Shown: one piece after another, positions 1-50,328 of the stretch
How positions within the stretch are numbered: the first letter of the stretch is position 1
Layout: the number at the start of each line of letters is the position of its first letter
Source of the DNA: an uncultured Acidobacteriota bacterium
GTDB taxonomy: Bacteria > Acidobacteriota > Vicinamibacteria > Marinacidobacterales > DATDRI01
Length of the DNA stretch: 64,000 nucleotides
Direction: 5' to 3'
Assembly: GCA_963722765.1 (NCBI GenBank)
Contig: CAVROO010000025.1
Coordinates: 104,378-168,377, forward strand
Program-made: the position numbers and the translations under genes
The notes under the pieces: generated by a model
Seen by the model: only the letters and a program-made list of their open reading frames with translations
What the model was told of the DNA's origin: nothing
Database searches by the model: none

Positions 1-1646
1 GCGTTGGTCGCGTCCACTTTGCCGTCCACGGCCAGGGAGATTTTCGAGCCGACCTGCTTGACGGAAACGGTGGTGACCTCGTCTTCTCGGTAAAAGACGA
101 GATCGCCACGCCGCAGGAAATCGAGGACTTCGCCTTCACCCAGATAGGCGGCGTATTTGTACATACCACCCGACATCAGCTCCCGATCCCAATGGGGAAG
201 AACAAAAGGTGCTATGAAAGATGCCCCCAGAGCGGTGGCAGCTAAAGCGATGCGAACCGCTGTACGTGAGACGGCGGCCAGAACCAATGACCCCGCTATG
301 ACGTGTACGATGGCGGCGACATAGAGTGTCGCCTCCATTCCAATCCACGGCAGAAACAAAAACCCGGCGGTGAGGGAGCCGGAAACGGCGCCGACCGTGT
401 TCCACGCGTAAACGTGTCCGGTGGCCTTGCCGGTTTCGCGAACCGATTGGTAAAGGAGGCGTACAGCAAGAGGGAAGGCGGCGCCGAAAAGAAAGCTCGG
501 CACGATGAGCAACAGGAAAACCCAGAGGAGCTCAACCTGCAGCAACCAGGTCATTCGGTCGGCGTTGGCGCGGATCATCTGACCTACGGGAACCGGAAGC
601 CGTCCAATGATCTGAATGACGGCTATCGAAGCTAGGGCGGCGACCATTTGCACGACGGCGAGAAGGCTCGCCGGTCGGTGGCTGCGAGCCGCCCATCGCG
701 AGGAAACGGCACTGCCCAAGGCAATGCCGGCGATGACCGCCGAGACGACGAACGCAAAACCGTAGGTGGTCGGCCCGATGAGAAGAACCAGCGCCCGGGT
801 CCAGGCGACCTCGTCCATCAGAGCCGCCATTCCGGACAGGGCGATAACCGTTGAGACCACCCATGGCGCTACCGTCTCGAGGGTTGTTTCTTTTTCCTTG
901 GTCTTGCGTTTGGCTTTTTGGGGCTTGGGTGTGTTGACCTCGGCTTGCTTCTCGACGTTTTCTCCTCGAGTCGTTGCGAGCACGATCGCTGCTGCGGCCA
1001 GATTCAGCAGGATTGCAAGTCCCGTGGAATAACGTACACCGAGAAGGTAGAGAAGAAAGACTCCCGTGGCCAGACTTCCGAGCATGGCCCCCAGTGTGTT
1101 GGCGGCGTAGAGACGTCCCGCGGCTCGGCCTGATTGTTTGGCGCCGTCGTTTGCGTCCGGCGGTTTGGTGGACGAAGGTCCCAGGAACGTTGTCATCACG
1201 GGAAGAGTCGCTCCCATGAGTGTTGTCGGGATCAAAAGCAGCAAAGCACACGAACCGAATCGAAACAGACCCACCAGCGCGGCCGATGAGGTGCCGGCTC
1301 GGTAAAGCTCGGCCAGCAGGGGAGTCAATAGCTGCAGCAGAAAGGGAAAAGCGAGGCCAAAGACGGCAATCCCGGTCTCGATGAGCGCGTAAAGACGCGG
1401 CAGCTTTTGACGCGGGAGCTGGTCCACGTATCGCGCCGCCACGGCACTGCCCAAGCCAAGGCCGGCCATGAAGGTGGCCAGGACGGTCGCCATGGCAAAG
1501 ACCGTGCTGCCCATAACCAGGGTGAGCTGACGAACCCAGAGGATCTGATAGATGAGTCCGGCGGCGCCGGACAGGAATAGTGCCGTGAAAAAAAAGAACC
1601 AGGTACGGGAAGAAGCGGTCTTTGCTTCTTGAGCCTCTCGAGTCAC
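1..1646 (-). CDS. fused MFS-type membrane domain / spermidine synthase-like protein, 5' part (3' end lies beyond window start)
   Basis: Own translation of an unlisted minus-strand frame: GTG at 1646 preceded by in-frame TAA; ..FFFFTALFLSGAAGLIYQILWVRQLTLVMGSTVFAMATVLATFMAGLGLGS.. (multi-TM) then ..GGMYKYAAYLGEGEVLDFLRRGDLVFYREDEVTTVSVKQ..AVDGKVDATN, the pattern of SpeE-like fusion proteins. Listed ORF 532..1785 is an Arg-rich shadow frame. Confidence 0.75.
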   Translation of the reverse strand, partial: MTREAQEAKTASSRTWFFFFTALFLSGAAGLIYQILWVRQLTLVMGSTVFAMATVLATFMAGLGLGSAVAARYVDQLPRQKLPRLYALIETGIAVFGLAFPFLLQLLTPLLAELYRAGTSSAALVGLFRFGSCALLLLIPTTLMGATLPVMTTFLGPSSTKPPDANDGAKQSGRAAGRLYAANTLGAMLGSLATGVFLLYLLGVRYSTGLAILLNLAAAAIVLATTRGENVEKQAEVNTPKPQKAKRKTKEKETTLETVAPWVVSTVIALSGMAALMDEVAWTRALVLLIGPTTYGFAFVVSAVIAGIALGSAVSSRWAARSHRPASLLAVVQMVAALASIAVIQIIGRLPVPVGQMIRANADRMTWLLQVELLWVFLLLIVPSFLFGAAFPLAVRLLYQSVRETGKATGHVYAWNTVGAVSGSLTAGFLFLPWIGMEATLYVAAIVHVIAGSLVLAAVSRTAVRIALAATALGASFIAPFVLPHWDRELMSGGMYKYAAYLGEGEVLDFLRRGDLVFYREDEVTTVSVKQVGSKISLAVDGKVDATN

Positions 1647-1663
1647 GAGCGGAGTTTATCAAG

Positions 1664-1729
1664 AAAGAATACAGAATACAGTAGTCAGAAGGAATAGGGA
1701 CGACGACTACGTCGTCGGCTTCAGGATTG
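1664..1729 (+). repeat. short tandem CAGAA/AGAAT array + GC hairpin (family copy 1)
   Basis: gaatacagaatacagtagtcagaagg followed by hairpin gacgacg-acta-cgtcgtc and tail ggcttcaggattga; same layout as 17799..17879 and 33921..34019. Confidence 0.6.
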
Positions 1730-1856
1730 AGAAAAGACAGGATGAACCTTTGTTGGAGTTGCATAGGTCGGTAGAGCAAGGTCAAATAGTGTTGCTCTCA
1801 GGTCCAGCATTCACGCGTATGCAAGAAAGTTTATATGTAGAACGGAGGTCGGACTG

Positions 1857-4513
1857 ATGTATCGACGCATAGCGATCGGATTGATACCGCTTCTTCTTGG
1901 ATCCGTTGCCGCCGTGGCGGAGGTGCCAAAGCCCGCCGATGTCTTCGGTTTCGAGCCGGGAGCCGACTACAAGATCGCCGACTACAAACAAATACTGGAT
2001 TATTACCAGCGTCTGGACAAAGAAAGTGATCGGGTTCGGTTGAAGGAGATCGGCCAGTCCGTCGAGGGGCGTCCCTTGCTCTTGCTCTTCATTTCGAGCG
2101 AAGAGAACATCGCCCGTCTCGATCACTATCGCTCGGTCAGCGAGAAACTGGCCCGGGCCCGCGTCGATGAAACGGCGGCTCGCCAACTCGCTGCGGAAGG
2201 CAAAGCCATCATTTGGGTCAACGGTGGGCTTCACGCTACGGAAAGAGCGCCAGGCCAGACTATGCCCCTTCTCGCCTACCACGTGGCCACCGAAGAGTCT
2301 CCGGAGATGAAGAAGGTTCGGGAGAATGTGATCTTGCTGCTCATGCCCATGATGAATCCAGACGGTTTGGATCTGGTCGCCGATTGGTATCGCAAGAATC
2401 TTGGAACTCCCTATGAGACCACGAGTCCGCCCCAGTCTCTATCACCACTACGTGGGGCACGACAACAACCGCGACTGGTTCATGAATAACATGCCGGAAA
2501 CGGAAGCGGTCTCGGAGATTCTCTATAACAGGTGGTATCCCCAGATCGTGCTCAACCACCACCAAACCTCACCGCCCTGGGCACGCATCTACCTCCCGCC
2601 TTTTTCCGATCCGGTCAACCCACGCATCCACCCCGGTGTGACCACCGGCGTCAACATCGTAGGAAGCGCTATGGCCAACCGCTTCGCCATGGAGAAGAAG
2701 CCGGGTGTCATCTCCGGCATCGTCTTCAGTATGTGGTGGAACGGCGGCATGCGGACCGTGCCTTACTATCATAACCAGGTGGGGATTCTAACCGAGACCG
2801 GCCATGCCACCCCGACGCCTCGATATTACGATCCCGAAGAACTACCCGAGAATCTCATCCCTTACGGCGGCCGTATTCGGGGCGGAATGATCTCGACGAA
2901 AGGCACCAACATCAACTACCCCTATCCCTGGAAAGGTGGAGAGTCTCATTTCCGCGATGCCGTCGACTACATCTATACGGCTTCCATGGCGGTGTTGGAT
3001 ATCGGATCGAATCTGCGTGAGGAGTGGCTCTTCAATATGTATCAAATGGGCCGGGACGCCATCGATGAAGGCAAATCCGGCTCTTTCGCGTACGTCATTC
3101 CCATGGAGCAGTGGGACCGAGGCGAAGCTTACAATCTGGTGGGTGTTCTTCGTCGGGGGGGGGTCGAGGTCGAGCGTTCCACGGCGGACTTCACAGCGGG
3201 GGGACAATCCTATGCGAAGGGATCCTTTGTGATCCGCTGCGACCAGGCGTTTCGCCCCTACCTCGTCGATCTGATGGAGACGCAGGACTATCCCGATCGA
3301 CGACGGACTCCGGACGGGCCGCCTGACCCGCCTTACGATCTCGCCGGTTGGACCTTGCCGATGCAGATGGGTGTTCGGGTGGACCTTATCGAGGAGTCCT
3401 TCGAGTTTCACACCGAAGAAGTGACCGGTCTCGTGGTGGGAGATGCCGGCGAGGTCACCGGGGATGCCGGCTACGGCTACGTGCTTTCCCATCGTCCCAA
3501 CTACGCCACCTGGGCCGTCAACCTACTTCTTGGCAAGGGAGAGCATCTTTACCGGACGGAAGAGGGATTTCAGGCCGGTGGTCGCCACTACGACGCCGGC
3601 GCCATCCTCATCGAGTCGAAGGGCCGCGATACGGTTAATGGCGTGAAATCGATGGCCGACCTCGGTCTGGATTTCGCGGGGATCTCGAGCAAACCCTCGA
3701 CGGAGCTCGTTCCCCTGAGGGAGGCGCGGATCGGCCTTTACAAGTCTTGGATGTCCAACATGGACGAAGGTTGGACCCGGTGGTTGCTCGAAAGCTACGA
3801 CTTCGCCGTCGAGACGCTTCACGACGAAGACATCCGGGCGGGAGACCTATCGCGTTTCGATGCCGTTCTGCTCCCCGATCAATCGCCGGATGACATTATG
3901 AATGGCCACCCGCCGGGAACCATGCCCGATGAGTATGTGGGCGGGTTGGGTCTAGAGGGCGCCCTCGCTTTAAAGCAATTTGTGGATCAAGGCGGAACGC
4001 TTGTGGCTCTCGACCACGCGAGCGACTTCGTGATCGATCAGTTTGGTTTGCCGGTTCGTAACGTGGTCTCGGACGTCTCACCGCGGGAGTTTTTCATCCC
4101 CGGATCGTTGATCCGAACGAAAGTGGATATAACTCATCCGCTCGCATACGGCATGCAGGAGGAAGTGGCGGTGTCGTTTCAGAGGAGCCGGGCTTTCGAG
4201 ATCGTCACCCTGAGCCGCATGGGCGAGGGCGGCAAAGAGGAAACCAAGGCGCCTCCGGCTCCGCCGGTGGACATCATAGCGAGCTATGCCGAAGAAGAGA
4301 TCCTGATGAGTGGGTGGGCCCTCGGCGAAGAGAAATACATTGCGGGAAAAGCAGCCGTCGTCAAAGTCGACGTCGGTTCGGGCGAGGTCATTCTGTTTGC
4401 TTTTCGGCCTCAGTTCCGAGGGCAGCCACGGGGGACTTACAAGCTCGTTGTTCAATGCTCTGCAGGGTGCGGCTGCCGGTGTGAAACCACCATCCACAGA
4501 CGCAAACCAATAA
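1857..4513 (+). pseudogene. M14 family zinc carboxypeptidase, interrupted by two frame changes as assembled
   Basis: ORFs 1857..2489, 2401..4518 and 4310..4513 are consecutive pieces of one protein: signal peptide, HxxE zinc motif in GGLHATERAPGQ, ..LYHHYVGHDNNRDW.., C-terminus ..PRGTYKL / LFNALQGAAAG. Frame changes at ~2430 (inside ccgcccca) and ~4447. Confidence 0.8.
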
Positions 4514-4514
4514 T

Positions 4515-5437
4515 CTAGCGGGTCACGACGAGATATCCGGCGCGGGATCTGATCTCGGAAGCCTTGTGTCCTTTTACCTTCACTTCGATCTTGTGCCAGC
4601 CTTCCGGCGACACATCTCGCGGTTGGTAGGTTAGGAGGAACCGCGTCTCCATTTCCGATAGAATCCGGAGATAGATGTCTTTCAGCTCGTCGGCGGAGCG
4701 CGCGAACCAGGTTCGACCTCCCGTCGATTCAGCTGAGCCTTTCGAGGAATCGGTTCCCGTCCTGGGAGGCGTTCGAGATCAGGCGGTTGCCGCGGTAAAT
4801 CCCGCCGGCGGTAACTACGCTGACGGTGTAGATGATGGTATCCGAGGCTTTCGCCGCGTCCATCAAATCCGATTCACGAATCCAGCTCGCGTTGTCGTTG
4901 CCGTCCGTGAAGAGCAGCAACAACGGTCTTCCCGTACCGGACTCCAAGAGCTTCAATCCGGCGAACAACGCATCGTTGAGCGCGGTGATATCCTCCTTCA
5001 ATTCTCTGATTCAGGACTCTTTGAAGCGTCGTGAAATCGTTGTCGAGGGCCTTTCTCAAGTCCATTCGATGCGTGAACATCAACAGACCGGCTTCATCTT
5101 CCTTTTTTAGACCTTCGACGAAAGCATGAGCGGCTCCGCGAAGGTGCTTCAGCTTCGGACCGCGTACACTGCCGCTGACGTCCAAAACGAGCAGCGTGCT
5201 CATGGGAACGGCTTCGATATCCACCAGCTCGTGCTCTTGAGCGACTCCGTTGTCGAAGACGACGAAATCCTCGCTCTCGAGCGTGGTGAAGGGTTTGCCG
5301 TCGCGTGTGACGAAGATATCCACATAGACGTTACGCACTTCGAGCTCGAATCGATAGAGCTCCTGACCGAAAACCGGATGAGGCAGAAACATGGAGAGCG
5401 AGAGCAGCCCGACCGAGATGAAGTCATGGCTCCTCAC
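4515..5437 (-). pseudogene. VWA domain protein (acidobacterial VWFA-related type), two frame changes as assembled
   Basis: ORFs 4874..5437 and 4729..5001 plus an unlisted 3' frame (AESTGGRTWFARSADELKDIYLRILSEMETRFLLTYQP..GYLVVTR*) join into one protein with MIDAS DxSxS (VLDVSGSV), GGDITALNDAL and LLLFTDGNDN. Frame changes ~4993 and ~4735. Confidence 0.7.
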
Positions 5438-26567: not shown

Positions 26568-26590
26568 CTTGATATTGATATCATATCAAG
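26568..26590 (+). promoter_or_regulatory. palindromic operator candidate upstream of the RHH antitoxin gene
   Basis: CTTGATAT-TGATATCA-TATCAAG, nested palindrome in an AT-rich stretch ~45 nt upstream of ATG 26635. RHH antitoxins typically autoregulate through such sites. Confidence 0.55.
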
Positions 26591-26634
26591 ATATCATGTT
26601 GCATTGGTTGGATACAACAGGAAGGAGCCAAAAA

Positions 26635-26871
26635 ATGGGTGCTGTTTCACTCAAGCTGCCCGACGAATTACTCGAGGCCAGTGGTCGTTGCGCTGCAGCC
26701 CTTCAAATACCGCGAGCCGAGTACATAAGACGCGCCATCGAAATAATGAACAAGGAGACGCAAAAGCATTTAAGAGCCCAGAGGTTGGCTGAGTCTTCCC
26801 GAAAAGTGCGCGAGGAAAGCATGAAGGTCAATGCCGAGTTCGCGGCCATCGAGCGAGATCCCGATGTTTAG
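26635..26871 (+). CDS. ribbon-helix-helix (CopG-like) antitoxin
   Basis: ATG 26635 after GGAAGGAG. MGAVSLKLPDELLEASGRCAAALQIPRAEYIRRAIEIM.. fits beta-strand + two helices of RHH. 8-nt overlap with the MazF-like gene. Confidence 0.75.
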   Translation: MGAVSLKLPDELLEASGRCAAALQIPRAEYIRRAIEIMNKETQKHLRAQRLAESSRKVREESMKVNAEFAAIERDPDV

Positions 26872-27208
26872 GAGGGGTGAGATTTGGCTGGCCGATCTCG
26901 ATCCGCCACGTGGCACTGAGCCCGGCAAAACCCGTCCTGTACTTATCATTCAATCTCAAACCCTCTTGGATGTCCAGCATCCATCGACGTTGATCGTCCC
27001 CTTGACTACGAACCTCGTGGAAGACGCCGAGCCGCTCCGTATACGTGTACCTGCTTTTGGACGTCTTCGTCATAAGTCGGACCTGCTAATCGACCAACTT
27101 CGCGCGATCGACAACAGGCAAATGGTCAAGGGACCTCTTGCTCATCTGGGACGTGATCTCATGGCGCGGGTTCGCGAAGCCCTCATGGAAACCCTCGATT
27201 TCATTTGA
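26864..27208 (+). CDS. mazF: MazF/PemK family type II toxin (endoribonuclease)
   Basis: MFRRGEIWLADLDPPRGTEPGKTRPVLIIQSQ..LIVPLTTNL..IDQLRAIDNRQM: canonical PemK/MazF N-terminal motif and length (114 aa). Confidence 0.85.
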   Translation: MFRRGEIWLADLDPPRGTEPGKTRPVLIIQSQTLLDVQHPSTLIVPLTTNLVEDAEPLRIRVPAFGRLRHKSDLLIDQLRAIDNRQMVKGPLAHLGRDLMARVREALMETLDFI

Positions 27209-27327: not shown

Positions 27328-28743
27328 CTAATTCTTCGAGGCCGCGGCACTCGAGCTCGAATTGTTCTGCTGGGCCTGCTTTCGGAAAGTTTCCGGTTGG
27401 ATTCCGTACTTTTTCATCACGTCGTAGAAATCCTTCCGGTCCTTCTTGGCAAGCCGTGCCGCCTGCGAGATGTTGCCCTGGCAGATGCGGAGCACCTGCG
27501 AAATGTACTCCTTCTCGAACTCCCGCTTCGCCTCCTTGAAGGACTGGAACTTGTTCGATGAAACGGGCACGTGGAAAAACAGGTCCTCGGCGGTGATGAC
27601 GTTGTTACGCGTCAGCACCATGGCTTGCTTGACTTTGTTTTTGAGCTCGCGGACGTTGCCCGGCCACTGATAGGTCATCATTTTTTGGATGGCCGCCGGT
27701 GAGAAACCCTCTACCTTCTTTCCCAGCTCCTTGTTGAAATCGTTGAGAAAGTGGTTGATAAGGAGCGGAATATCCTCCTTGCGCTCCCGCAGGGGAGGAA
27801 TGTGGATAGGGATAACGTTCAAGCGGTAGAAGAGATCCTCGCGGAACGATTTTTCGGCAATGGCCTGGATCAAATCCTTGTTCGTGGCGGCGATGACGCG
27901 CACATCCACTTTGATGGGTTTGGTGGAGCCGATGCGCTTGAACTCGCCGTCCTGGAGCACCCTTAGAAACTTGACCTGAAGCGGCAAGGGCAACTCGCCG
28001 ATCTCGTCCAGGAACAAGGTTCCACAGTGGGCTTCTTCGAAAAGTCCTTTCTGATCGGTCCGAGCGTCCGTATAAGCTCCCTTGACGTGTCCGAAGAGCT
28101 CGTTCTCGATGAGGTTCTCCGGGATAGCACCGCAATTCTCAACGATAAAGGGCTTGTCGGCTCGCTTGCCTGTGTAATGGATGGCCCTCGCGACGAGCTC
28201 TTTCCCGGTGCCCGATTCACCATAGATGATGACCGGTACATCGTTCTGAGCCACGATGGAGATTTGCGTCAGGAGCTCTTCGATTTTCGGGCAAGATCCG
28301 ACGATGAAGTCGGATTTGCGCCGGGTCATAATCCTCGAACGGACCTGCTTTACCTCGGTGGTGGTGCGGTGCTTGTCGAGGGCCCGTTTGACGCGGCCCA
28401 TGAGCTCTTCGACGTCGAAGGGCTTAGTGACGTAGTGGAATACGCCCTCCTGCATGAGCTGGACCGCATCATTCACCTCACCGTATGCGGTCATGACGAT
28501 GACGGGAATCTCGGGATTGAACTTGGCTACGGCCCGTGCCAGCTCGTCGCCCCGAAGTCGAGGCATCTTCAGATCCGTGATGACGAGATTGAAGACCTCC
28601 TGGCGAATCAGGTTGATCCCCTCTTCACCATTGGCGGCGGTCACGACACTGTAGCCTTCTCGCTCGAGACGGTGTCGCAGCATTCGGAGCATGCTGGCGT
28701 CGTCATCCACAATTAGCACTTGTGGCCCTGAGGGCTCCTTCAT
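27328..28743 (-). CDS. sigma-54-dependent response regulator (NtrC-family EBP: REC + AAA+ + Fis-type HTH)
   Basis: Likely start MKEPSGPQVLIVDDD (28743). REC with D in VITDLKMP, Walker A GESGTGKE, Walker B TLFLDEIGE, sigma-54 contact loop present as GAYTDA, WPGNVREL, C-terminal HTH GNISQAARLAKKDRKDFYDVMKKYGI. Confidence 0.9.
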   Translation of the reverse strand: MKEPSGPQVLIVDDDASMLRMLRHRLEREGYSVVTAANGEEGINLIRQEVFNLVITDLKMPRLRGDELARAVAKFNPEIPVIVMTAYGEVNDAVQLMQEGVFHYVTKPFDVEELMGRVKRALDKHRTTTEVKQVRSRIMTRRKSDFIVGSCPKIEELLTQISIVAQNDVPVIIYGESGTGKELVARAIHYTGKRADKPFIVENCGAIPENLIENELFGHVKGAYTDARTDQKGLFEEAHCGTLFLDEIGELPLPLQVKFLRVLQDGEFKRIGSTKPIKVDVRVIAATNKDLIQAIAEKSFREDLFYRLNVIPIHIPPLRERKEDIPLLINHFLNDFNKELGKKVEGFSPAAIQKMMTYQWPGNVRELKNKVKQAMVLTRNNVITAEDLFFHVPVSSNKFQSFKEAKREFEKEYISQVLRICQGNISQAARLAKKDRKDFYDVMKKYGIQPETFRKQAQQNNSSSSAAASKN

Positions 28744-28824
28744 TGCTACGGCTCCGTCGTTTTCTTTTTGGGTGTAGGGAAAATTATACACCGTTTTTTC
28801 TCCAATGGAAAGAAGGGTTTCGAC

Positions 28825-29976
28825 TCATGCTCGTCCCCTTGCCCCAATCCCGGTCCGCCAAAGTGAACGGTTCCACCGTGCGAGGGCGTGCCGACGCACC
28901 AGGTAGAGGCCTCGACGAAGGACGGAATTGCGATTAACTGCGCTTATGCCTCGTGGTTGGAGTGTTTCCGATATCAACTGATACGCATCCTTGAGGCTCG
29001 GCGTCCATGCAATACGGTTCCAAGGGGATCCGTTCACCGAATCCTCCGAGGCAGATATCAGCGACGAGATCTTCAGGTTCTTCACCCAACGTCGCAAACG
29101 ACCGGGGACCCGGGACTCGAGAGCTTCAAGAGCGCTTTGTACCTTGGCGTTGGGGAGGACCCGATGGCTGATGCCGAGTCCCGCAAAAACCAAAGGAGTG
29201 AGCCTTGGTTTCGAGGCCTGATCGAGGAAACGGTCCCAATCGAGCGCGGGAAGTTGTGCCAACAGATAGACGTCACAAGCATTGATGCCAGGTTGGCGAA
29301 GTCCGTGCTGGAAGCTTCCATGTAGACAAAGGTGGAGCAGGTGGTCCTCCGGCGAGAGCGTTCTCGCCGGTGGGGCGCCATGTCCGGTGCTCCGCGATCG
29401 CGTGAACATCGCCCCGGGATCGAGACCGAGATACCAGGGACAGCTGGTCAAGCTCGTGTGAATCTCGAGATGAGTTCCACTCTTCGAGTGTCGGAGTGAG
29501 ATGGCATGATCCGTAGTTTGGTAGAGCGTGTAGTCGAGTTTCTCCGCCAGCTTTATCGCTGCAGAGGTGTCTCGCTCGTGAATGAGGACATCCAGATCGG
29601 CCATCGGACGAAGCCCGGAACCTCCATAGAGCCAACCGACGAAAGCCGCGCCCTTTAGAAGAAGAACTGGAATGTTGGACCGATGGGCTGCCTCAATGAG
29701 CGATTCACAGTGATCGAGCAGAACGACGTTTCGCGCCAGATTCGTGTAATAGTCCGAATAGAGAGAGGACCAAACGCGTGTCGGCGGTAGCGATTCCAGT
29801 TTGGCACGCCGCGCCGACTCGTAAACGAGACCCGAGAAACGATGTTTCCGAGCGGTTCTCAATATGAAGTCCCAGTCGGCCGTTTCGAATTGGCTTCCAT
29901 CAAACCGTGGTCGGCACTTTTCGGTCAAGCCCGCTTCCACGAGCGAAAGGAGGGCCCGAATCGATGCTTCAGACAC
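28825..29976 (-). CDS. uncharacterised nucleotidyltransferase family protein (NTP_transf_5-like)
   Basis: 383-aa ORF. VLLLKGAAFVGWLYGGSGLRPMADLDVLIHERD..AIKLAEKLDY.. then HLEIH..HLLHLCLH matches the pattern I recall for PF14907 proteins. 8-nt overlap with the upstream peptidase gene. Confidence 0.65.
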   Translation of the reverse strand: MSEASIRALLSLVEAGLTEKCRPRFDGSQFETADWDFILRTARKHRFSGLVYESARRAKLESLPPTRVWSSLYSDYYTNLARNVVLLDHCESLIEAAHRSNIPVLLLKGAAFVGWLYGGSGLRPMADLDVLIHERDTSAAIKLAEKLDYTLYQTTDHAISLRHSKSGTHLEIHTSLTSCPWYLGLDPGAMFTRSRSTGHGAPPARTLSPEDHLLHLCLHGSFQHGLRQPGINACDVYLLAQLPALDWDRFLDQASKPRLTPLVFAGLGISHRVLPNAKVQSALEALESRVPGRLRRWVKNLKISSLISASEDSVNGSPWNRIAWTPSLKDAYQLISETLQPRGISAVNRNSVLRRGLYLVRRHALARWNRSLWRTGIGARGRA

Positions 29977-30430
29977 GGGATGCTCCTTGTGAGGCGGCTT
30001 GCCCCAGCCAATGTCGCATGGTCGATTTCATTCTCACCAGTCGAGGGTAGAGATTGCTCATACGCAGGCCGAGCCAACGGGAAAAACCAGTGTCTGTGAG
30101 AATCGGGACCGGTCCTTCGACTCGAACCACCCTGCCCAATATTTGGTCTGGTCTCCGTGGGCCGTCGAAAGTGGCGCACGAATCCCCTTTTGCGAGGATG
30201 GTTTCGGCGGATTGGGAAAGGACGCGGTGCGTGGTGAGTTTACCGTCATCCCCGCGGAAGAGCGCGATCTCTCCGACGCGCAGCGGTTCATCGACGGGAG
30301 CGACGTGCAAGAAACGCCCGCTTACCAAAAGCGGTTTCATGCTCCAGCCGGCGACCTGAATACGCACGGTTTTCCCGGAATTCAGTAACGCGGCCACGAG
30401 CTCGGACTTATCGCTATTGTTTAACACCAT
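29969..30430 (-). CDS. S26B (SipW/Sec11-like) signal-peptidase-family protein
   Basis: RIQVAGWSMKPLL (GxSMxP Ser motif), LTTHRVL (His motif), ILAKGDSCATFDGP (KGDxxxxxD). I place the start at ATG 30430 because a consensus sigma-54 promoter lies inside the longer TTG-initiated ORF (to 30505). Confidence 0.65.
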   Translation of the reverse strand: MVLNNSDKSELVAALLNSGKTVRIQVAGWSMKPLLVSGRFLHVAPVDEPLRVGEIALFRGDDGKLTTHRVLSQSAETILAKGDSCATFDGPRRPDQILGRVVRVEGPVPILTDTGFSRWLGLRMSNLYPRLVRMKSTMRHWLGQAASQGASRV

Positions 30431-30461: not shown

Positions 30462-30477
30462 TGCAAACGGCGTGCCA
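30462..30477 (-). promoter_or_regulatory. sigma-54 promoter P1 (perfect -24/-12 consensus)
   Basis: Minus strand reads TGGCACGCCGTTTGCA = TGGCACG-N4-TTGCA. GC element ~33 nt upstream of ATG 30430. Confidence 0.8.
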
Positions 30478-30511: not shown

Positions 30512-30640
30512 AATAAGGTCTTATATTCCAATGAGGGAATTCGGCAATAGGTTTGGCCCTACGTATGGGTGGAAACCCACGCGGGATGGAGCCCTAGTAT
30601 CAAATAAAAAGCCTGTCACAGGATAGCCAGACGTTGGTTG

Positions 30641-30934: not shown

Positions 30935-31999
30935 CTAGGGCTGGGTTTGTACCACTACGAAATACGAATAGCCCGACGGCGGGCCTTCGAAGCCCAAGGT
31001 ACTGATTGCAGTGACCCTCCAGAAGTACGTGCCCGGCGGGAGATCCAGGACTCTAACCGTCGGCTCGCCGCGGACCTCGCGCTCCACGACGAGATCGAAA
31101 AAGCTCTCATCCCGAGCGATCTCTAAGCGATAACCCTGCATGTCCCCGACGGCGCTCCATTCGAAATTCTGATCGAAGGGCTCACCCCGAAAGACCTGTT
31201 CGGGCTGCGGAGCGACTAGGTTCGCGGGGGCGGATGGAAGTGATTGCGGTTCTCCGAGCGGCTCCCCGGCCCGGGAAAGCAGACCTGAGCTCGCGGGGAC
31301 CGAAATTGATTCTGTTCCTGCGTTGAGCTCTACGTTGCCGTCAAGCACTTCGAGACGGCTGACGTCTCCTGATTCCACTTTAAGCCGAAAGTCCGTTCCA
31401 CGAATAATGGTGCTGGCGGTGGGGGTCTTGACTTCGAACCGTCCACCGGTCTTTTTTTTGATACTCGACCAGATCGTCCCCTCCAAGAGCTCGAGCTGCA
31501 CCCGAACCCCGGAATCTTTGGCATCCAGTGTGGTGAGCCGAGCTCGGCCGTTGCTTCGGATCAGAACGAAACTTTTGTCTTCGAACAAGATACGGCCGCC
31601 GGATCTCCGCCAGGTCCGGATCACATCTCCTTCACGGAGAAGAAGGTTCTTGACCACGGGGATGAAGCGATGATCGAAGGATCTCCGTATTTCGGTTTCG
31701 CCGTAGAATCCCGCGATTTTGGCGAGAAACTCGTCGCTCGCAAACATGTCTCGGGTCAGCTCTAGGTGTAATCCCGAGCGCAGCAAATTGAATCGGGAAA
31801 TGTCTTCCCACTGACCCGTGATTTCCGTGTAGGTCTGAAAAACATTCTCGGGACTGGAATCAGAGTCCGTCAGAATGAGCACATACGACTCGGGAGCGGC
31901 TGAGCGATCGTTACGGGTACCCTGGGCCGAGACTCCGCTCGATAACAAGAGGCCCATTAGCGTAACCCAAACCGGACTGTGTCGCGTCAACACCGGCAA
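30935..31999 (-). CDS. secreted FecR-domain protein with C-terminal Fn3/Ig-like module
   Basis: Signal peptide (..LLLSSGVSAQG). FecR core GGRFEVKTPTASTIIRGTDFRLKVESGDVSRLEVLDGNVELN. C-terminal FEWSAVGDMQGYRLEIARDESF..PPGTYFWRVTAIS. Start TTG 31999 or GTG 31993 after AAGGAGG. Confidence 0.75.
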   Translation of the reverse strand: MPVLTRHSPVWVTLMGLLLSSGVSAQGTRNDRSAAPESYVLILTDSDSSPENVFQTYTEITGQWEDISRFNLLRSGLHLELTRDMFASDEFLAKIAGFYGETEIRRSFDHRFIPVVKNLLLREGDVIRTWRRSGGRILFEDKSFVLIRSNGRARLTTLDAKDSGVRVQLELLEGTIWSSIKKKTGGRFEVKTPTASTIIRGTDFRLKVESGDVSRLEVLDGNVELNAGTESISVPASSGLLSRAGEPLGEPQSLPSAPANLVAPQPEQVFRGEPFDQNFEWSAVGDMQGYRLEIARDESFFDLVVEREVRGEPTVRVLDLPPGTYFWRVTAISTLGFEGPPSGYSYFVVVQTQP

Positions 32000-32147: not shown

Positions 32148-32163
32148 AGCAAATCCTTTGCCA
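32148..32163 (-). promoter_or_regulatory. sigma-54 promoter P2 (upstream of FecR-like gene)
   Basis: Minus strand TGGCAAAGGATTTGCT. GG-N10-GC spacing correct, TTGCT -12 element. ~140-150 nt upstream of the start codon. Confidence 0.6.
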
Positions 32164-32462: not shown

Positions 32463-32478
32463 TGGCATGAGGGTTGCT
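32463..32478 (+). promoter_or_regulatory. sigma-54 promoter P3 (upstream of 32525..33919)
   Basis: TGGCATGAGGGTTGCT. One mismatch to TGGCACG-N4-TTGCW, correct spacing. Predicted TSS ~36 nt before ATG 32525, which has a GAGGT Shine-Dalgarno. Confidence 0.7.
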
Positions 32479-32524: not shown

Positions 32525-33919
32525 ATGTCTAGAAGACAAGATCGCAATCGCCGGGCGAGTGTTCTGATTCTGGTCGTAGTGGGTGTTATTGCGGCCATGG
32601 GCTACGGTATCGCTCAAAGCGCTGTGGTCACGCAAGCAGAGTGGGCTGTGTACATGGTACGGGCCCTCAACCTGGATTGGAACCTGCCTCCTAATCCGAA
32701 GAGCAATCACTATATCGAGCGGCTGAACTGGCGATCGGGAATCGAGTTCGCTGCGACTTCATTGGAGTCCGGCTCGAGTCCGACGGTTCGTGTTGACGCG
32801 CAGATCGACCAGGGCTTCATAGAGGCCCAGGGGCCGGCAGCCGAGGCGATGTATCGCGTCTCCACCATTCGTCCCGGTGAGTACGGCTTCCGACTGAAGC
32901 TGGCAAACGGCGGCGCCGTGGTCAAAGTGGGCAGCGCGGTCTTCGAAGCGTACCAGCCCGAGAATGATTTTCGCTGGGTGGATTTAGATCGAGTCAGTCT
33001 CGATCCCGGAGATCATACCTTGAGCCTCCTGCTCAATGAGGGGACGCGGACTCAAACGATTGGGGTGACACCGCCTTGTCTGATTTCTATTGAGCCGAAT
33101 ACCGGCTGGCAGCCGCTCGTTCCATTGACCTTCTCGGACTTGGCTGTGACGGTTGCGCAGGCACTCGACCTCGAGATAGGGCTCCCCGAGTTGGGACAGG
33201 AGACCACGATTAAAGGTGAGGAGTTCACCCGCCTCCTCGAGGTTCCGTTAGAGGAAACTGCCGAGGATGGAAGTCCCGATCCGTTCTGGCTCTCGAGCGG
33301 CAATATGTTGCTCACTGCCGAGACCCGATTCGAAATTTCGGAGCCCGGTCTCTACACCATCGAAGCACGGTATTTCAGTCCCAAGGAAATACGTTGGATC
33401 GTTGACGGTTGTTTGCGGGTTATTACTTGTCCTGTCAGCGCCCAAGGCGGAGTGAAGTGGACGTCGGTGGTTGCGATTCAACTCGAGGCCGGCTCACACG
33501 ATCTGACGATCACCATGCCGCCGAACGCCTCGCTGGACCGATTGAACATCAAGCAAAGAGACGGGTCCATTGAGGAGTATCTTGGTGTGGCGTCAGATGA
33601 AGGATTCAAGCTCGGGGACGCCGACGAGCCAGTGAGCCGTCGTCGCGCCATTGCGGCGGCCGTTCGTTTGAGAAGTCTTTTCGACCGATGGAAGACATCC
33701 CGATGCAACGATTCACTCATCGCACTCGATGAGTTGAGCGCTCTCATCATGGCGGCAGGAAGCGGGGATGGCGGTGGTCAAGAAGGACCTGGAGTAGTAA
33801 ATCAGGGTGCGATCCCAGGAGTGGTGGTTCGAACGCCGGTGGATGATTCAAGCAATCCCATTCTCCCGTCGCCGGGTGGCGATCCGGACGTGAGCAGCCC
33901 GACGCGGCCGGGACAATAA
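32525..33919 (+). CDS. secreted protein with two tandem [SLH-like helix + beta-sandwich] units and Pro/Gly-rich tail; function unknown
   Basis: 464-aa ORF. Signal anchor ASVLILVVVGVIAAMGYGIAQS. VTQAEWAVYMVRALNLD and LTFSDLAVTVAQALDLE resemble SLH-type helices, each followed by a beta-rich block (RVSTIRPGEYGFRLKL.. / FEISEPGLYTIEARYF..). Confidence 0.6.
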   Translation: MSRRQDRNRRASVLILVVVGVIAAMGYGIAQSAVVTQAEWAVYMVRALNLDWNLPPNPKSNHYIERLNWRSGIEFAATSLESGSSPTVRVDAQIDQGFIEAQGPAAEAMYRVSTIRPGEYGFRLKLANGGAVVKVGSAVFEAYQPENDFRWVDLDRVSLDPGDHTLSLLLNEGTRTQTIGVTPPCLISIEPNTGWQPLVPLTFSDLAVTVAQALDLEIGLPELGQETTIKGEEFTRLLEVPLEETAEDGSPDPFWLSSGNMLLTAETRFEISEPGLYTIEARYFSPKEIRWIVDGCLRVITCPVSAQGGVKWTSVVAIQLEAGSHDLTITMPPNASLDRLNIKQRDGSIEEYLGVASDEGFKLGDADEPVSRRRAIAAAVRLRSLFDRWKTSRCNDSLIALDELSALIMAAGSGDGGGQEGPGVVNQGAIPGVVVRTPVDDSSNPILPSPGGDPDVSSPTRPGQ

Positions 33920-34265: not shown

Positions 34266-36354
34266 CTAGCTCGCGGCGGGTCTCGTGATGCGAGTCACCT
34301 TGGCTTCCGGGTCGTTCTTCTGCTGGTAGTAGCCGTAGTACCGGTGGTACGAGTCCTGCTTGGGATCGACACCGTTTAAAACGACACCGGCGAGTCGCGC
34401 CTCCGTTCGGAGAAGCGAGTTCAAACAGCGACGGGCCAGCTTACGGTTGACCATGTTGTAGCGAACGATGAGGAGCACCGTATCGACCAATTTGGACAGA
34501 AGGAGAGAGTCGGTCACCGAAGCGATAGGTGGTGTATCGACAATGATCCAGGTGTAGTGCTCACGGCACTCCTCGAGGAATTTTTTGACGGACGGGCTTC
34601 CGATGAGGGCCGGCGGATTGGGCGGTAGTTTCCCGGACGCCACGGCTTCGAGGTTGTCGAAGCGGGTTCGCTGAACAATGATGTCCAGCTTGAGCTCTCG
34701 ACCGCAATAGTCGGCCAGTCCCGGCTCACGATAGAGCCGCAATTCGCGGTGGACACAACCACGTCGGAGATCGAAATCGACCAATAAAGTAGGCTCGCCC
34801 GATTCAGCGAGAGCTTTCGCCATGTTAATGGCGGTGGTGGACTTACCTTCCTGAGGAATCGAACTAGTGACTAGGATGATGTTGCCTTGGTCACGTTGGC
34901 GATTGAAAAGGAGGCTGGTCCGAAGAGTCCGATAAGACTCGGTGATGATGCTGGCGTTGGACGCGTCGTGACGAGGCACCACTGCCAAGCAAGGTGCTCG
35001 GAGATGGGTCTCGATGTCCTCTTGCTCCTTGAGTGTGTTGTCTAAGTAGTCTCTTCCCAGCACCAATCCGCAGCCACAGGCCATCCCCAGAACGAGAGCG
35101 AGAATCATGTTCTTGGTAGGCTGGGGACTTACGGGAGACGTGGGAACGGTGGCCGCTTGTACGAAGGACACGTTGTTATTCCAGAGACTCGATGCGATGT
35201 CCGTTTCCTTGATCTTCTGGAGGATGGCTTCGTAGAGACTCTTGTTGGAAACCGCTTCGCCCCGCAGCATATCGAGTTGCACTGCCTTGCGGCTCTCCTC
35301 GATAGATTGTTGTTTTTGGTTGTTGACCGTTGCTCTCAGTTCTCTTTCTCGACGAAGCACCTGATTGTAGTCGGCCTCCAACCCTTCGACAATCTTCGCC
35401 GCCCGGGCAGCGATGGCGTCTTCGAACTGCTCAATTTGAGTCCGGCGCTTTTTTATCTCGGGGTGTCCCTCTTTGTACTTGTTCTTGAGCTGCATGAGCT
35501 CGACCTGGATGTCGGCCCTTTGCTTGGCGAGGTCTTTCACCAAAGAATCCCGACTAACTTGCGGAACGTTCTCCAAGGAGGCGCCCTTTTTTGTCAATGT
35601 GCGGATTCTGAGTCAACGTGGAGTCGAGCTCGATGCGGCGAGTTTTGGCGTCCGTGTAGGCTTCGTTCAATTTCTCGAGAGTACCCGTGGCAATGCTCCG
35701 GCTGCCTTCTGGGATGTAGATGTTTTCCCCCTCGCTGTACTCGTGGAGCTTTTCTTCCGATTGCCGAACCGCATCTTGCACGTCTCCCAGACGTTCTTGC
35801 AGCCAGCTGTAGATGTCACGCGTGGTTTGTACCTTGGCTTCGATGTTTTGATCCACGTAGACTTCGGCCAGTGTATTGGCCCAATGAGCGGCTCGCTTGG
35901 GATCCGTGTGGCTGACGCTGATTTGGGCGAGGCGGGTGTCGGGCACGGGTACGACCTCGACATGAGACACGAAGATGGCCGCCGGATCCTTTGCGCCTTT
36001 AAAAGGAGGTTCCTTGGTCAAGCTCAATTTTTCGATGACTTGCTTACCTAGAGCTTTGCTACGGATGATCCAATACTGACTTTTGTAGTAATTCTGGTAG
36101 TCGAACCAGTTGAACGCTGTGGCAGGATAAGGATTGGAGAGGGCGTTCAGGTTTTGCCCCGGCGGCTCGATCTGTACGACCGACCGAGCCTTATAGATGG
36201 GCGTCTGCATGGAAGTGGCAAGGTAACCCAGCGCGAGAGCAACCACCGTTACGGCAATGATGATGGTCTTGCCATTCCACAGAACGTTGAGCCCGTACCG
36301 GAGGTCAAATCCTTCTCCGAGGCCCGGCATCAGTTGGGTGGATTCTTCGTTCAC
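34266..36354 (-). CDS. wzc: polysaccharide co-polymerase / BY-kinase (Wzc-like), frame change ~35590 as assembled
   Basis: ORF 35554..36354 = Wzz-type N-domain with TM. ORF 34266..35597 = coiled coil, second TM, kinase domain with Walker A SSIPQEGKSTTA, LLVDFDLRR, Walker B IIVDTPP and C-terminal Tyr cluster YHRYYGYYQQ. Junction lies in an A/T homopolymer (cccttttttg). Confidence 0.85.
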
Positions 36355-49541: not shown

Positions 49542-50273
49542 CTATCCGGCTACAAAACTAACCAGATCTCCCCAGTGGACGTCGGGCACGGGAACATACG
49601 GAGAAAAGAAACGTCCGTGTCTCGAGTACAAGCCGTAGACATGGACAAAGGGACTTTGAAAGATGGGGTCCGGTGAAGGGGCCCGGGAGTCGCCCCAGAG
49701 GATATTTCGAGCCCCGAGGATCTGGATCGTAGACACGGAAATCGGATCGAGATTGTGGTCGATGGACAACCACAACCGGTTCGAATCCACGAGCAGCCAT
49801 CCCTTGGACGTACTAACCTCGCTCAAAGCATGCGAAGGAATCCCCGGCACGGCCAGGACCAGCCAAGGTACTCGTAGCCCATCCGCACTATAAACGGATA
49901 CATGTCGAACCTGGAAACCGTTGGAAATGAGTATCTTCTCAATCACCCAGCTTCGGTCGAAACACAAACCGTGTCGCGCTAGGTAGAGGTCCCTGGGCTC
50001 TCTGCTGCTCCCGTAGGGAATTTTCTTGTTCGTAGGGGCTGCGGCGAGAACCGAGCTCTGCACTTCGGCAACAAATTCGATTTGCTCCATATATGAAAGG
50101 CGCTCGAAGGTCTCGCGTTGTGGTTTTCGCTCTGTGATTAGTTCTATATAGTGGCGATCCTCCTCCGTGATACGTCGCTCAACCGCACTCATGAGGTAAA
50201 GGGTCAAACCACCGCTTGGCAAGAAGACCAACAGCATGGAGAGCATTGCGAAACGTCGGCGTCGCTTCTTCAT
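49542..50273 (-). CDS. membrane-anchored transglutaminase-like (BTLCP-like) cysteine peptidase-fold protein
   Basis: Start moved to MKKRRRRFAMLSMLLVF (ATG 50273) because P7 abuts the longer ORF. Candidate Cys-His-Asp: HGLCFDRSWVIEKIL..GF.VRHV, ..PSHALSEVSTSKGWLLVDSN. Confidence 0.5.
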   Translation of the reverse strand: MKKRRRRFAMLSMLLVFLPSGGLTLYLMSAVERRITEEDRHYIELITERKPQRETFERLSYMEQIEFVAEVQSSVLAAAPTNKKIPYGSSREPRDLYLARHGLCFDRSWVIEKILISNGFQVRHVSVYSADGLRVPWLVLAVPGIPSHALSEVSTSKGWLLVDSNRLWLSIDHNLDPISVSTIQILGARNILWGDSRAPSPDPIFQSPFVHVYGLYSRHGRFFSPYVPVPDVHWGDLVSFVAG

Positions 50274-50312
50274 ATTCAGGACTCGCCTTGATCCTTCTGT
50301 GTCTTGATCCAA

Positions 50313-50328
50313 AGCAATTGACGTTCCA
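50313..50328 (-). promoter_or_regulatory. sigma-54 promoter P7
   Basis: Minus strand TGGAACGTCAATTGCT. One mismatch, correct spacing. ~29-nt leader to ATG 50273. Confidence 0.6.

Follow-up and report, generated by a model that had tools for sequence, protein, structure and literature searches.

Clusters for linear polyphosphorylated peptides (LPPs), which are peptides made by ribosomes and modified after translation (RiPPs), have been defined in Bacillota, including Paenibacillus alginolyticus (Nat Commun 2026, PMC13381572). Their LppS is a cytoplasmic leader peptidase that works with the PqqD-type recognition protein LppB, the HprK-like kinase LppK and the NTP_transf_5 protein LppN. In a cell-free system, LppS cleaved the leader only when LppB was present, and the exchanges S29A, H68A and D93A abolished cleavage (PMC13381572). 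LPP clusters are embedded in, and co-expressed with, capsule or polysaccharide loci, and the authors could only speculate on a link of the peptides to capsule or biofilm (PMC13381572). Among NTP_transf_5 proteins, PsmN is the only one with a phenotype: it is needed to add one or two hexoses to the phosphorylated C-terminal serine of pseudomycoidin, and the D134A/D136A exchanges inactivate it (Zyubko et al., PMC6993621). Here we describe a peptidase gene and an NTP_transf_5 gene that form a pair in an uncultured Acidobacteriota bacterium (Vicinamibacteria; Marinacidobacterales; DATDRI01). The window, i.e., the whole stretch of DNA analyzed, comprises 64,000 nucleotides (nt) and corresponds to positions 104,378-168,377 of CAVROO010000025.1 in assembly GCA_963722765.1.

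We conclude that the pair is probably the promoter-proximal part of a sigma-54 operon and probably represents a reduced peptidase-plus-transferase core of the LPP/paeninodin type that would act on a cytoplasmic substrate. The identity of the genes, their catalytic motifs, the signals for coupling and co-regulation, the association of the two families, including fusions, and the lack of membrane anchoring are directly supported by the data that follow.

The operon and its conservation

According to Pfam and NCBIfam scans of the open reading frames (ORFs), a large exopolysaccharide locus makes up the window, with genes for Wzz/Wzc, Poly_export, a BBP2 porin, numerous glycosyltransferases, a flippase, a Wzy_C-type ligase and a homolog of XrtA-type amidotransferases. 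On the minus strand, an ORF of 153 amino acids (aa; 29969-30430) is followed by one of 383 aa (28825-29976) and by the gene for a sigma-54 activator of 487 aa (27328-28791). The features of the operon are, in the direction of transcription:

30528..30580, minus strand: conserved upstream block including the dyad TGGGTGGAAACCCA (30566-30579), defined by conserved columns of a 13-locus alignment
30462..30477, minus strand: sigma-54 (-24/-12) promoter TGGCACGCCGTTTGCA of the operon, an exact consensus match, kept in 13/13 orthologous loci
29969..30430, minus strand: 153-aa soluble serine peptidase of S26B type (archaeal/endoplasmic reticulum (ER)-type signal-peptidase fold), LppS-like by motifs, profile and model
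28825..29976, minus strand: 383-aa enzyme of NTP_transf_5 nucleotidyltransferase fold, PsmN/LppN-like by Pfam, motifs and model
27328..28791, minus strand: sigma-54 enhancer-binding response regulator (receiver, AAA+, HTH_8), beginning 33 nt past the transferase stop

Because diverse peptidase alignments held no stretch that was conserved enough, related loci were found via the transferase alignment and the activator protein. The loci of transferase homologs (34-55% identity) all share one block of genes, made up of the BBP2 porin, Poly_export, Wzc, a divergent 464-aa protein, a FecR-domain protein, the small peptidase, NTP_transf_5 and the sigma-54 activator. About 30 loci of Acidobacteriota have the order peptidase-transferase-activator, in every case next to Wzc/Poly_export genes, in keeping with the link to an activator and to exopolysaccharide genes that a preliminary description of this DNA had noted. 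Species-representative genomes with the block are all Acidobacteriota, named Vicinamibacteria or 'Candidatus Marinacidobacterales', and a metagenome scan with the activator yielded 21 further loci with both upstream genes. In contrast, neither a peptidase nor a transferase gene was found within 4 kb of any of 50 activators at ≤59% identity. The synteny of the trio is far beyond chance. Across loci, the activator is 86-92% identical, the peptidase 36-48% and the transferase 36-53%.

The transferase gene overlaps the peptidase gene by 8 nt. An AAGGAG stands ahead of its GTG start at 29976, and the stop codon of the peptidase gene lies at 29969-29971, in line with the translational coupling described earlier for the two genes. 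In other loci, this overlap measures 1-13 nt. No terminator-like site was seen on the minus strand at the junction of transferase and activator. An overlap of 8 nt (ATGTATAA) joins the transferase stop to the activator start in most sister clades, and hence all three genes are translationally coupled there. The transferases of these clades (L003-L019) end with a conserved SLGEVRDV, whose codons overlap the Shine-Dalgarno sequence and start codon of the activator gene; this overlap explains the tail, and we rejected it as a docking motif. In our window (28792-28830) and in one relative (L001), the transferase stops earlier and the same DNA element is retained at the junction.

A sigma-70-like match, TTTCCA-17-TATAAT, is located at 28783-28811, and comparison of 44 loci showed that its TAT AAT are codons 2-3 of the activator gene. 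We rejected this match as an internal activator promoter, as the start codon, the GGAG and in-frame indels fit a translation start region; it may nevertheless serve as a sigma-70 promoter in a dual role. In orthologous loci, the activator ORF always has an in-frame ATG or GTG with an upstream GGAG Shine-Dalgarno sequence, and its length changes in frame.

The operon promoter TGGCACGCCGTTTGCA falls 32 nt upstream of the peptidase ATG, inside a longer version of the ORF that starts with TTG; this supports the corrected ATG start at 30430. A sigma-54 promoter was found in the same place upstream of the orthologous peptidase gene in all 13 related loci checked. The conserved block about 50-120 nt further upstream in the 13-locus alignment is probably an activator or IHF binding region, as judged from its position and conservation. 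The perfect dyad TGGGTGGAAACCCA within it occurs once in the window; as the other sigma-54 promoters of the window are without the dyad, we rejected it as a shared binding site. The window contains 10 sigma-54 promoter matches with at most one mismatch, compared with 1.4 ± 1.2 expected, and none of 100 shuffles reached 10. All 10 fall within its polysaccharide part. The earlier proposal that the pair is linked to the activator and to a sigma-54 polysaccharide regulon is supported.

The small peptidase

The predicted catalytic residues of the 153-aa protein are Ser30, His68 and Asp83/Asp89 in the motifs GWS30MKP, TH68RV and KGD83SCATFD89G. These S26B motifs, already noted in the preliminary description, are present as a full string in all 27 distinct orthologs. 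Moreover, in a 74-sequence family alignment, G-x-S-M-x-P, H-R-[VIL] and [KRQ]-G-D-[ASN]...D are invariant or nearly so. With the profile of this alignment, the best match among solved structures was human SEC11A/SEC11C (E 6e-11), with the Ser, His and Asp boxes aligned. The AlphaFold (AF2) model, with a predicted local distance difference test score (pLDDT) of 93.7, is built of a helix at the N-terminus, an S24/S26 beta core and a C-terminal helix that is long, basic and amphipathic; its Foldseek matches were LexA C-domains, SipA, SEC11A, SpsB and also UmuD'. Aligned with LppS, the protein is 24% identical (E 6e-7), with Ser30, His68, KGD and Asp89 in register.

No membrane segment was found in the peptidase, even in the long ORF, the maximum Kyte-Doolittle mean over 19 residues being 0.94. 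The absence of a transmembrane anchor after correction of the start, as originally described, is thus confirmed by hydropathy, while the start itself is backed by the promoter. Most of 149 family representatives lacked a segment of transmembrane grade as well. The family is large: an exhaustive profile search found 15,526 clusters at E ≤ 1e-3 and 2,665 at E ≤ 1e-10. Nearly all members have 140-180 aa, and the longer ones are fusions to GNAT acetyltransferases or, in two proteins (P0202, P0203), to NTP_transf_5. In these two fusions, the order of the peptidase and NTP_transf_5 domains equals the gene order in the window. The small protein is hence predicted to be a soluble cytoplasmic serine protease with an archaeal/ER-type Ser30/His68/Asp89 set, homologous to LppS.

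The transferase

The 383-aa protein matches Pfam PF14907 (NTP_transf_5) at E 6.5e-50 with 170.5 bits, well over the cut-off of 31.2, and the alignment spans residues 32-274 and profile positions 2-248 of 249. Its motifs LKGAA, D127-x-D129 and E171 constitute the signature of Pol-beta nucleotidyltransferases and are kept in 30 of 31 distinct orthologs. The top Foldseek matches of its AF2 model (pLDDT 87.5) were ANT(2'')-Ia (including 5cfs and 4xje), LnuA and TM1012. According to the model, the fold appears to resemble that of small-molecule O-nucleotidylyltransferases acting on sugar hydroxyls, with the metal-binding carboxylates intact. Literature searches on the names NTP_transf_5, PF14907 and SynChlorMet found almost nothing. 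The earlier statement that this family is without established function is partly true and holds except for PsmN, which is needed for hexose addition to the phosphoserine of pseudomycoidin (PMC6993621).

Family members in other neighborhoods

We sampled seven neighborhoods of the peptidase family outside the clade of the window. A PqqD-type recognition protein was encoded in all seven and NTP_transf_5 within 10 kb in six; radical SAM maturases occurred in five, HprK-related (ScmC-like) proteins in four and a short precursor-like ORF in five. Wzc, Bac_transf or glycosyltransferase genes adjoin most of them. Loci of lasso type or rich in glycosyltransferases, with PqqD and B2 proteins, harbor more distant NTP_transf_5 genes. 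Supplementary data of the LPP study list NTP_transf_5 140 times around 126 SpI-like peptidases, and also contain uncharacterized homologs from Acidobacteriota and Chloroflexota (PMC13381572). NTP_transf_5 thus is an accessory of peptide-modification clusters, as had been suggested for it.

Three of the precursor-like ORFs (L026 5923-6087, L027 5925-6086 and L030 4695-4895) feature a YxKP leader motif, several cysteines and a C-terminal serine. In peptides of the paeninodin type, HprK-like kinases phosphorylate serine. The three ORFs lie in cassettes of radical SAM, PqqD, HprK-like, NTP_transf_5 and peptidase genes.

Two further observations concern this family. Very large Peptidase_C25 (gingipain-like) proteins repeatedly flank peptidase/NTP_transf_5/PqqD cassettes on unrelated metagenomic contigs (L026-L029, L008). 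On a Bacillus mycoides plasmid (L021, 8998-9537), an 'S24/S26 family peptidase' is encoded beside radical SAM and PqqD genes and has a cysteine at the position of the nucleophilic serine (GLCMSP).

A proposed reduced peptide-maturation core

We propose that the operon of peptidase, transferase and activator has become fixed in exopolysaccharide loci of Vicinamibacteria-type Acidobacteriota. The pair would be a reduced relative of the core of LPP/paeninodin-type RiPP clusters, which typically lie embedded in polysaccharide loci. The peptidase would cut an N-terminal segment off a peptide or protein in the cytoplasm, a substrate other than a Sec signal peptide. On this same substrate, the transferase would attach a nucleotide-derived or sugar-phosphate group to a hydroxyl or phosphate. 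The activator would induce the pair with which it is co-expressed, together with the polysaccharide genes.

Several points weigh against this proposal. A custom hidden Markov model (HMM) for PqqD-type proteins had no match at E ≤ 1 in the six-frame translations of the window and of 17 related loci (within 10 kb of the trio), although its positive controls scored E 1e-24 to 1e-34. A custom HMM for HprK-like kinases had no matches in the same DNA. Pfam scans of the larger ORFs of the window revealed no ABC (MsbA-like) exporter, and no small precursor ORF with a YxxP-like leader motif was found in the window. LppS needs its recognition protein to cleave (PMC13381572), and none was found beside our pair. 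Furthermore, identity to LppS is only 24%, and as a single sequence the peptidase remained below the cut-offs of PF00717 (just under, with 22.1 versus 23.3 bits) and of TIGR02228 for archaeal-type signal peptidase I (29.8 versus 51.85 bits). Of the family assignments made at the outset, NTP_transf_5 hence passed its model clearly (170.5 versus 31.2), the S26B assignment was upheld by family profile and motifs, and the single-sequence scores for the peptidase did not reach threshold. The chemistry of the transferase is unproven because deletion of lppN had no visible effect (PMC13381572). Finally, the function of the pair, including its activity and transcription, is read from sequence.

Since no PqqD protein, kinase, exporter or ORF with a leader motif was found, we regard the pair as a reduced LPP-type core that was presumably recruited into the operon of the activator.

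Alternative explanations

Alternatively, the target of the transferase may be the polysaccharide or a sugar intermediate linked to a lipid or nucleotide, modified by transfer of a nucleotidylyl or sugar-phosphate group, with the small protein being non-proteolytic or accessory. The nearest folds are indeed those of ANT(2'')-Ia and LnuA, which nucleotidylylate sugar hydroxyls, and NTP_transf_5 genes occur in glycosyltransferase-rich loci. The decoration that results from PsmN is a hexose-phosphate, and the possibility that PsmN makes a glycosyl donor was left open by its authors (PMC6993621). In addition, it is speculated in the LPP study that LppN needs a partner whose gene lies outside the core cluster to be active (PMC13381572). 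However, the invariance of Ser, His and Asp in 27/27 orthologs argues for a working protease and not for an adaptor, and across the family, the partner genes serve peptide modification (PqqD, radical SAM and HprK-like). We consider a role on the glycan side unlikely.

The activator of the operon could itself be a substrate. It carries an N-terminal extension (window 28743-28791, minus strand) of the form M/V-Y-N-F-P-H/Y-T, followed by a variable linker of 8-11 residues that ends in (D/N)-G-A-V-x, a methionine and then the receiver domain. By cleaving and/or modifying this leader-like extension (MYNFPHT...GAVx, with the conserved Met behind the cut), the pair might control the polysaccharide regulon post-translationally. 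The extension opens with a YxxP motif typical of lasso and LPP leaders, and every activator of the orthogroup (at least 80% identity) bears it. More distant activators align only from about residue 24 and are without it; the 50 of them that we compared lack both extension and pair. From the tyrosine to the conserved Met in front of the receiver there are about 15-16 residues, similar to the spacing between tyrosine and cleavage site in one LPP precursor (Supplementary Data 1, PMC13381572). Among start-proximal YxxP motifs in the window, only that of the activator falls at the start of an annotated, gene-length ORF. The three genes are tightly coupled, and no other substrate and no histidine kinase is encoded nearby.

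Against this, no recognition protein was found that would present the leader, and the residue in front of the presumed cleavage site varies (A, T, L or V). One locus (L042) has retained the extension and lost the pair, with a remnant of the transferase 3' end left. The second Met may be a mere alternative start. Moreover, codons 2-5 of the activator gene (TAT AAT TTT CCC) are invariant in nucleotides across the 44 loci, which suggests selection on translation initiation and not on a peptide signal. Hence we find it rather improbable that the pair processes the activator. With a slender chance at best, RiPP-maturation enzymes might have been domesticated here as a regulatory device, such that activation of the exopolysaccharide regulon would depend on the processing of its own master regulator.

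The preliminary description had instead compared the peptidase with SipW of the Bacillus tapA-sipW-tasA operon. It would then be a signal peptidase for two conserved neighbors of the operon:

30935..31999, minus strand: FecR-domain protein with N-terminal signal peptide, conserved neighbor, own sigma-54-like promoter at 32148-32163 (minus strand)
32525..33919, plus strand: 464-aa predicted secreted protein without family assignment, conserved neighbor, own sigma-54-like promoter at 32463-32478 (plus strand)

Both neighbors are syntenic, have signal-peptide-like N-termini and possess sigma-54 promoters of their own, as stated before, and the peptidase has S26B-type motifs, best profile matches to SEC11A/C among solved structures and weak NCBIfam matches to archaeal-type signal peptidase I and SipW. 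Yet its SipW score of 16.7 bits was far below the cut-off of 190. Because the protein has no transmembrane segment or signal peptide, its active site would lie in the cytoplasm; such segments are missing from most of the 149 family representatives too, and other members are fused to cytoplasmic enzymes. The characterized relative, LppS, is a cytoplasmic leader peptidase that cleaves a RiPP leader in a cell-free system (PMC13381572). The secretory analogy is hence not supported, and we judge a SipW-like function very unlikely.

Hardly credible, finally, is a UmuD/LexA-like self-cleaving regulator, because the general base is the His of S26B and not the Lys of S24 even if the model fold also resembles LexA C-domains and UmuD', or a decaying remnant without function, because catalytic motifs and intact ORFs persist in about 30 loci, and the promoter and the gene coupling are conserved as well, even if the pair evolves much faster than the activator (36-53% versus 86-92% identity).

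Other features of the window

The Wzc tyrosine-kinase/co-polymerase gene of the window (34266-36354, minus strand) is split into two overlapping ORFs in different frames. In relatives, Wzc is one protein of 698-717 aa. A T6/A6 run at about 35585 lies close to the break in the window, and the split would be due to a frameshift or to an error of assembly. A ribbon-helix-helix antitoxin-like ORF and an ORF for a PemK/MazF-family toxin (Pfam E 5.9e-24) form an overlapping pair at 26569-27208 (plus strand) that is convergent with the activator gene.

A 256-aa ORF (49542-50312, minus strand) lies directly downstream of a sigma-54-like promoter (50313-50328), and because the promoter abuts its start, the start codon is probably mis-set. 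This ORF had a sub-threshold Transglut_core match only (E 0.005) and no NCBIfam matches, and on these grounds we rejected it as a lasso-type component. The AsnB homolog was rejected as such a component as well, since it is an XrtA-type amidotransferase or asparagine synthase of the usual kind. An exosortase was not seen among the genes of the window. The 417-aa ORF at 532-1785 (minus strand) and the 705-aa ORF at 2401-4518 (plus strand) matched no Pfam family at E ≤ 1e-3, and a PADLOC scan for defense systems had no matches.

Comparison with known systems

The operon offers a minimal, genetically defined setting in which to study what LPP- and paeninodin-type peptide machinery, and NTP_transf_5 enzymes in particular, do for the cell. 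It poses the questions of what the transferase transfers, what a soluble peptidase cuts without a recognition protein, and whether this serves matrix production or its regulation. Were the regulator the substrate, the operon would exemplify a novel mode of control over an enhancer-binding protein; otherwise, it would simply extend a recently described family to another phylum.

Like LppS, the window peptidase is a soluble SpI-like protein of about 150 aa with an N-terminal helix, and its Ser30, His68 and Asp89 stand opposite S29, H68 and D93 of LppS. In both systems the peptidase is paired with an NTP_transf_5 gene and located in a polysaccharide locus. The peptidase is, however, nearer (37%) to an uncharacterized acidobacterial homolog in cluster 3 (Acidobacteriota/Chloroflexota) of the sequence similarity network in PMC13381572 than to LppS itself. 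Unlike in LPP clusters, counterparts of LppB, LppK, the exporter LppD and the precursor LppA were not found in the window, and the pair belongs to another phylum and shares its operon with a sigma-54 activator.

The transferase agrees with the published description of PsmN in three features: assignment to 'uncharacterized nucleotidyltransferases', ANT(2'') structures 5cfs/4xje as remote templates and a DxD pair (D134/D136 in PsmN, D127/D129 in the window). PsmN, in contrast, acts on the kinase-phosphorylated C-terminal Ser of a lasso peptide and is encoded beside a B2 cysteine peptidase, whereas the window has neither kinase nor lasso peptide. The 'SynChlorMet'-like (ScmC/ScmD) cassettes of radical SAM, PqqD and HprK-like genes share the peptidase family and NTP_transf_5 with our locus and often lie beside Wzc, Bac_transf and glycosyltransferase genes. 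Unlike the window, these experimentally uncharacterized cassettes also comprise genes for a PqqD protein, for radical SAM maturases, for an HprK-like kinase and for a short precursor that is rich in Cys and has Ser as its last residue.

With SipW, Sec11 and archaeal signal peptidase I (MEROPS S26B; TIGR02228), the peptidase shares the Ser-His-Asp boxes and the core beta-fold, but it is without transmembrane anchors, scores below the model cut-offs and is predicted to be cytoplasmic. The activator has the domain architecture of PrsR (PEP-CTERM box, TIGR02915), i.e., receiver, Sigma54_activat and HTH_8, and the polysaccharide locus resembles PrsR loci in its XrtA-type amidotransferase-like AsnB, EpsL-like porin and Wzc. 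However, the activator reached 407.4 bits versus an equivalog cut-off of 502.6, and it differs from PrsR by its unique N-terminal extension and by the peptidase-transferase pair upstream.

The pairing of such a peptidase with NTP_transf_5 is already known. An SpI-like peptidase with NTP_transf_5 in capsular loci was described in 2026 (PMC13381572), so that the earlier view of the combination as undescribed is outdated; in the literature that we found, only the operon with the activator and the absence of recognition protein, kinase and precursor had no description. New here is a reduced pair, with no recognition protein, kinase, exporter or precursor nearby, in the activator operon of Acidobacteriota polysaccharide loci.

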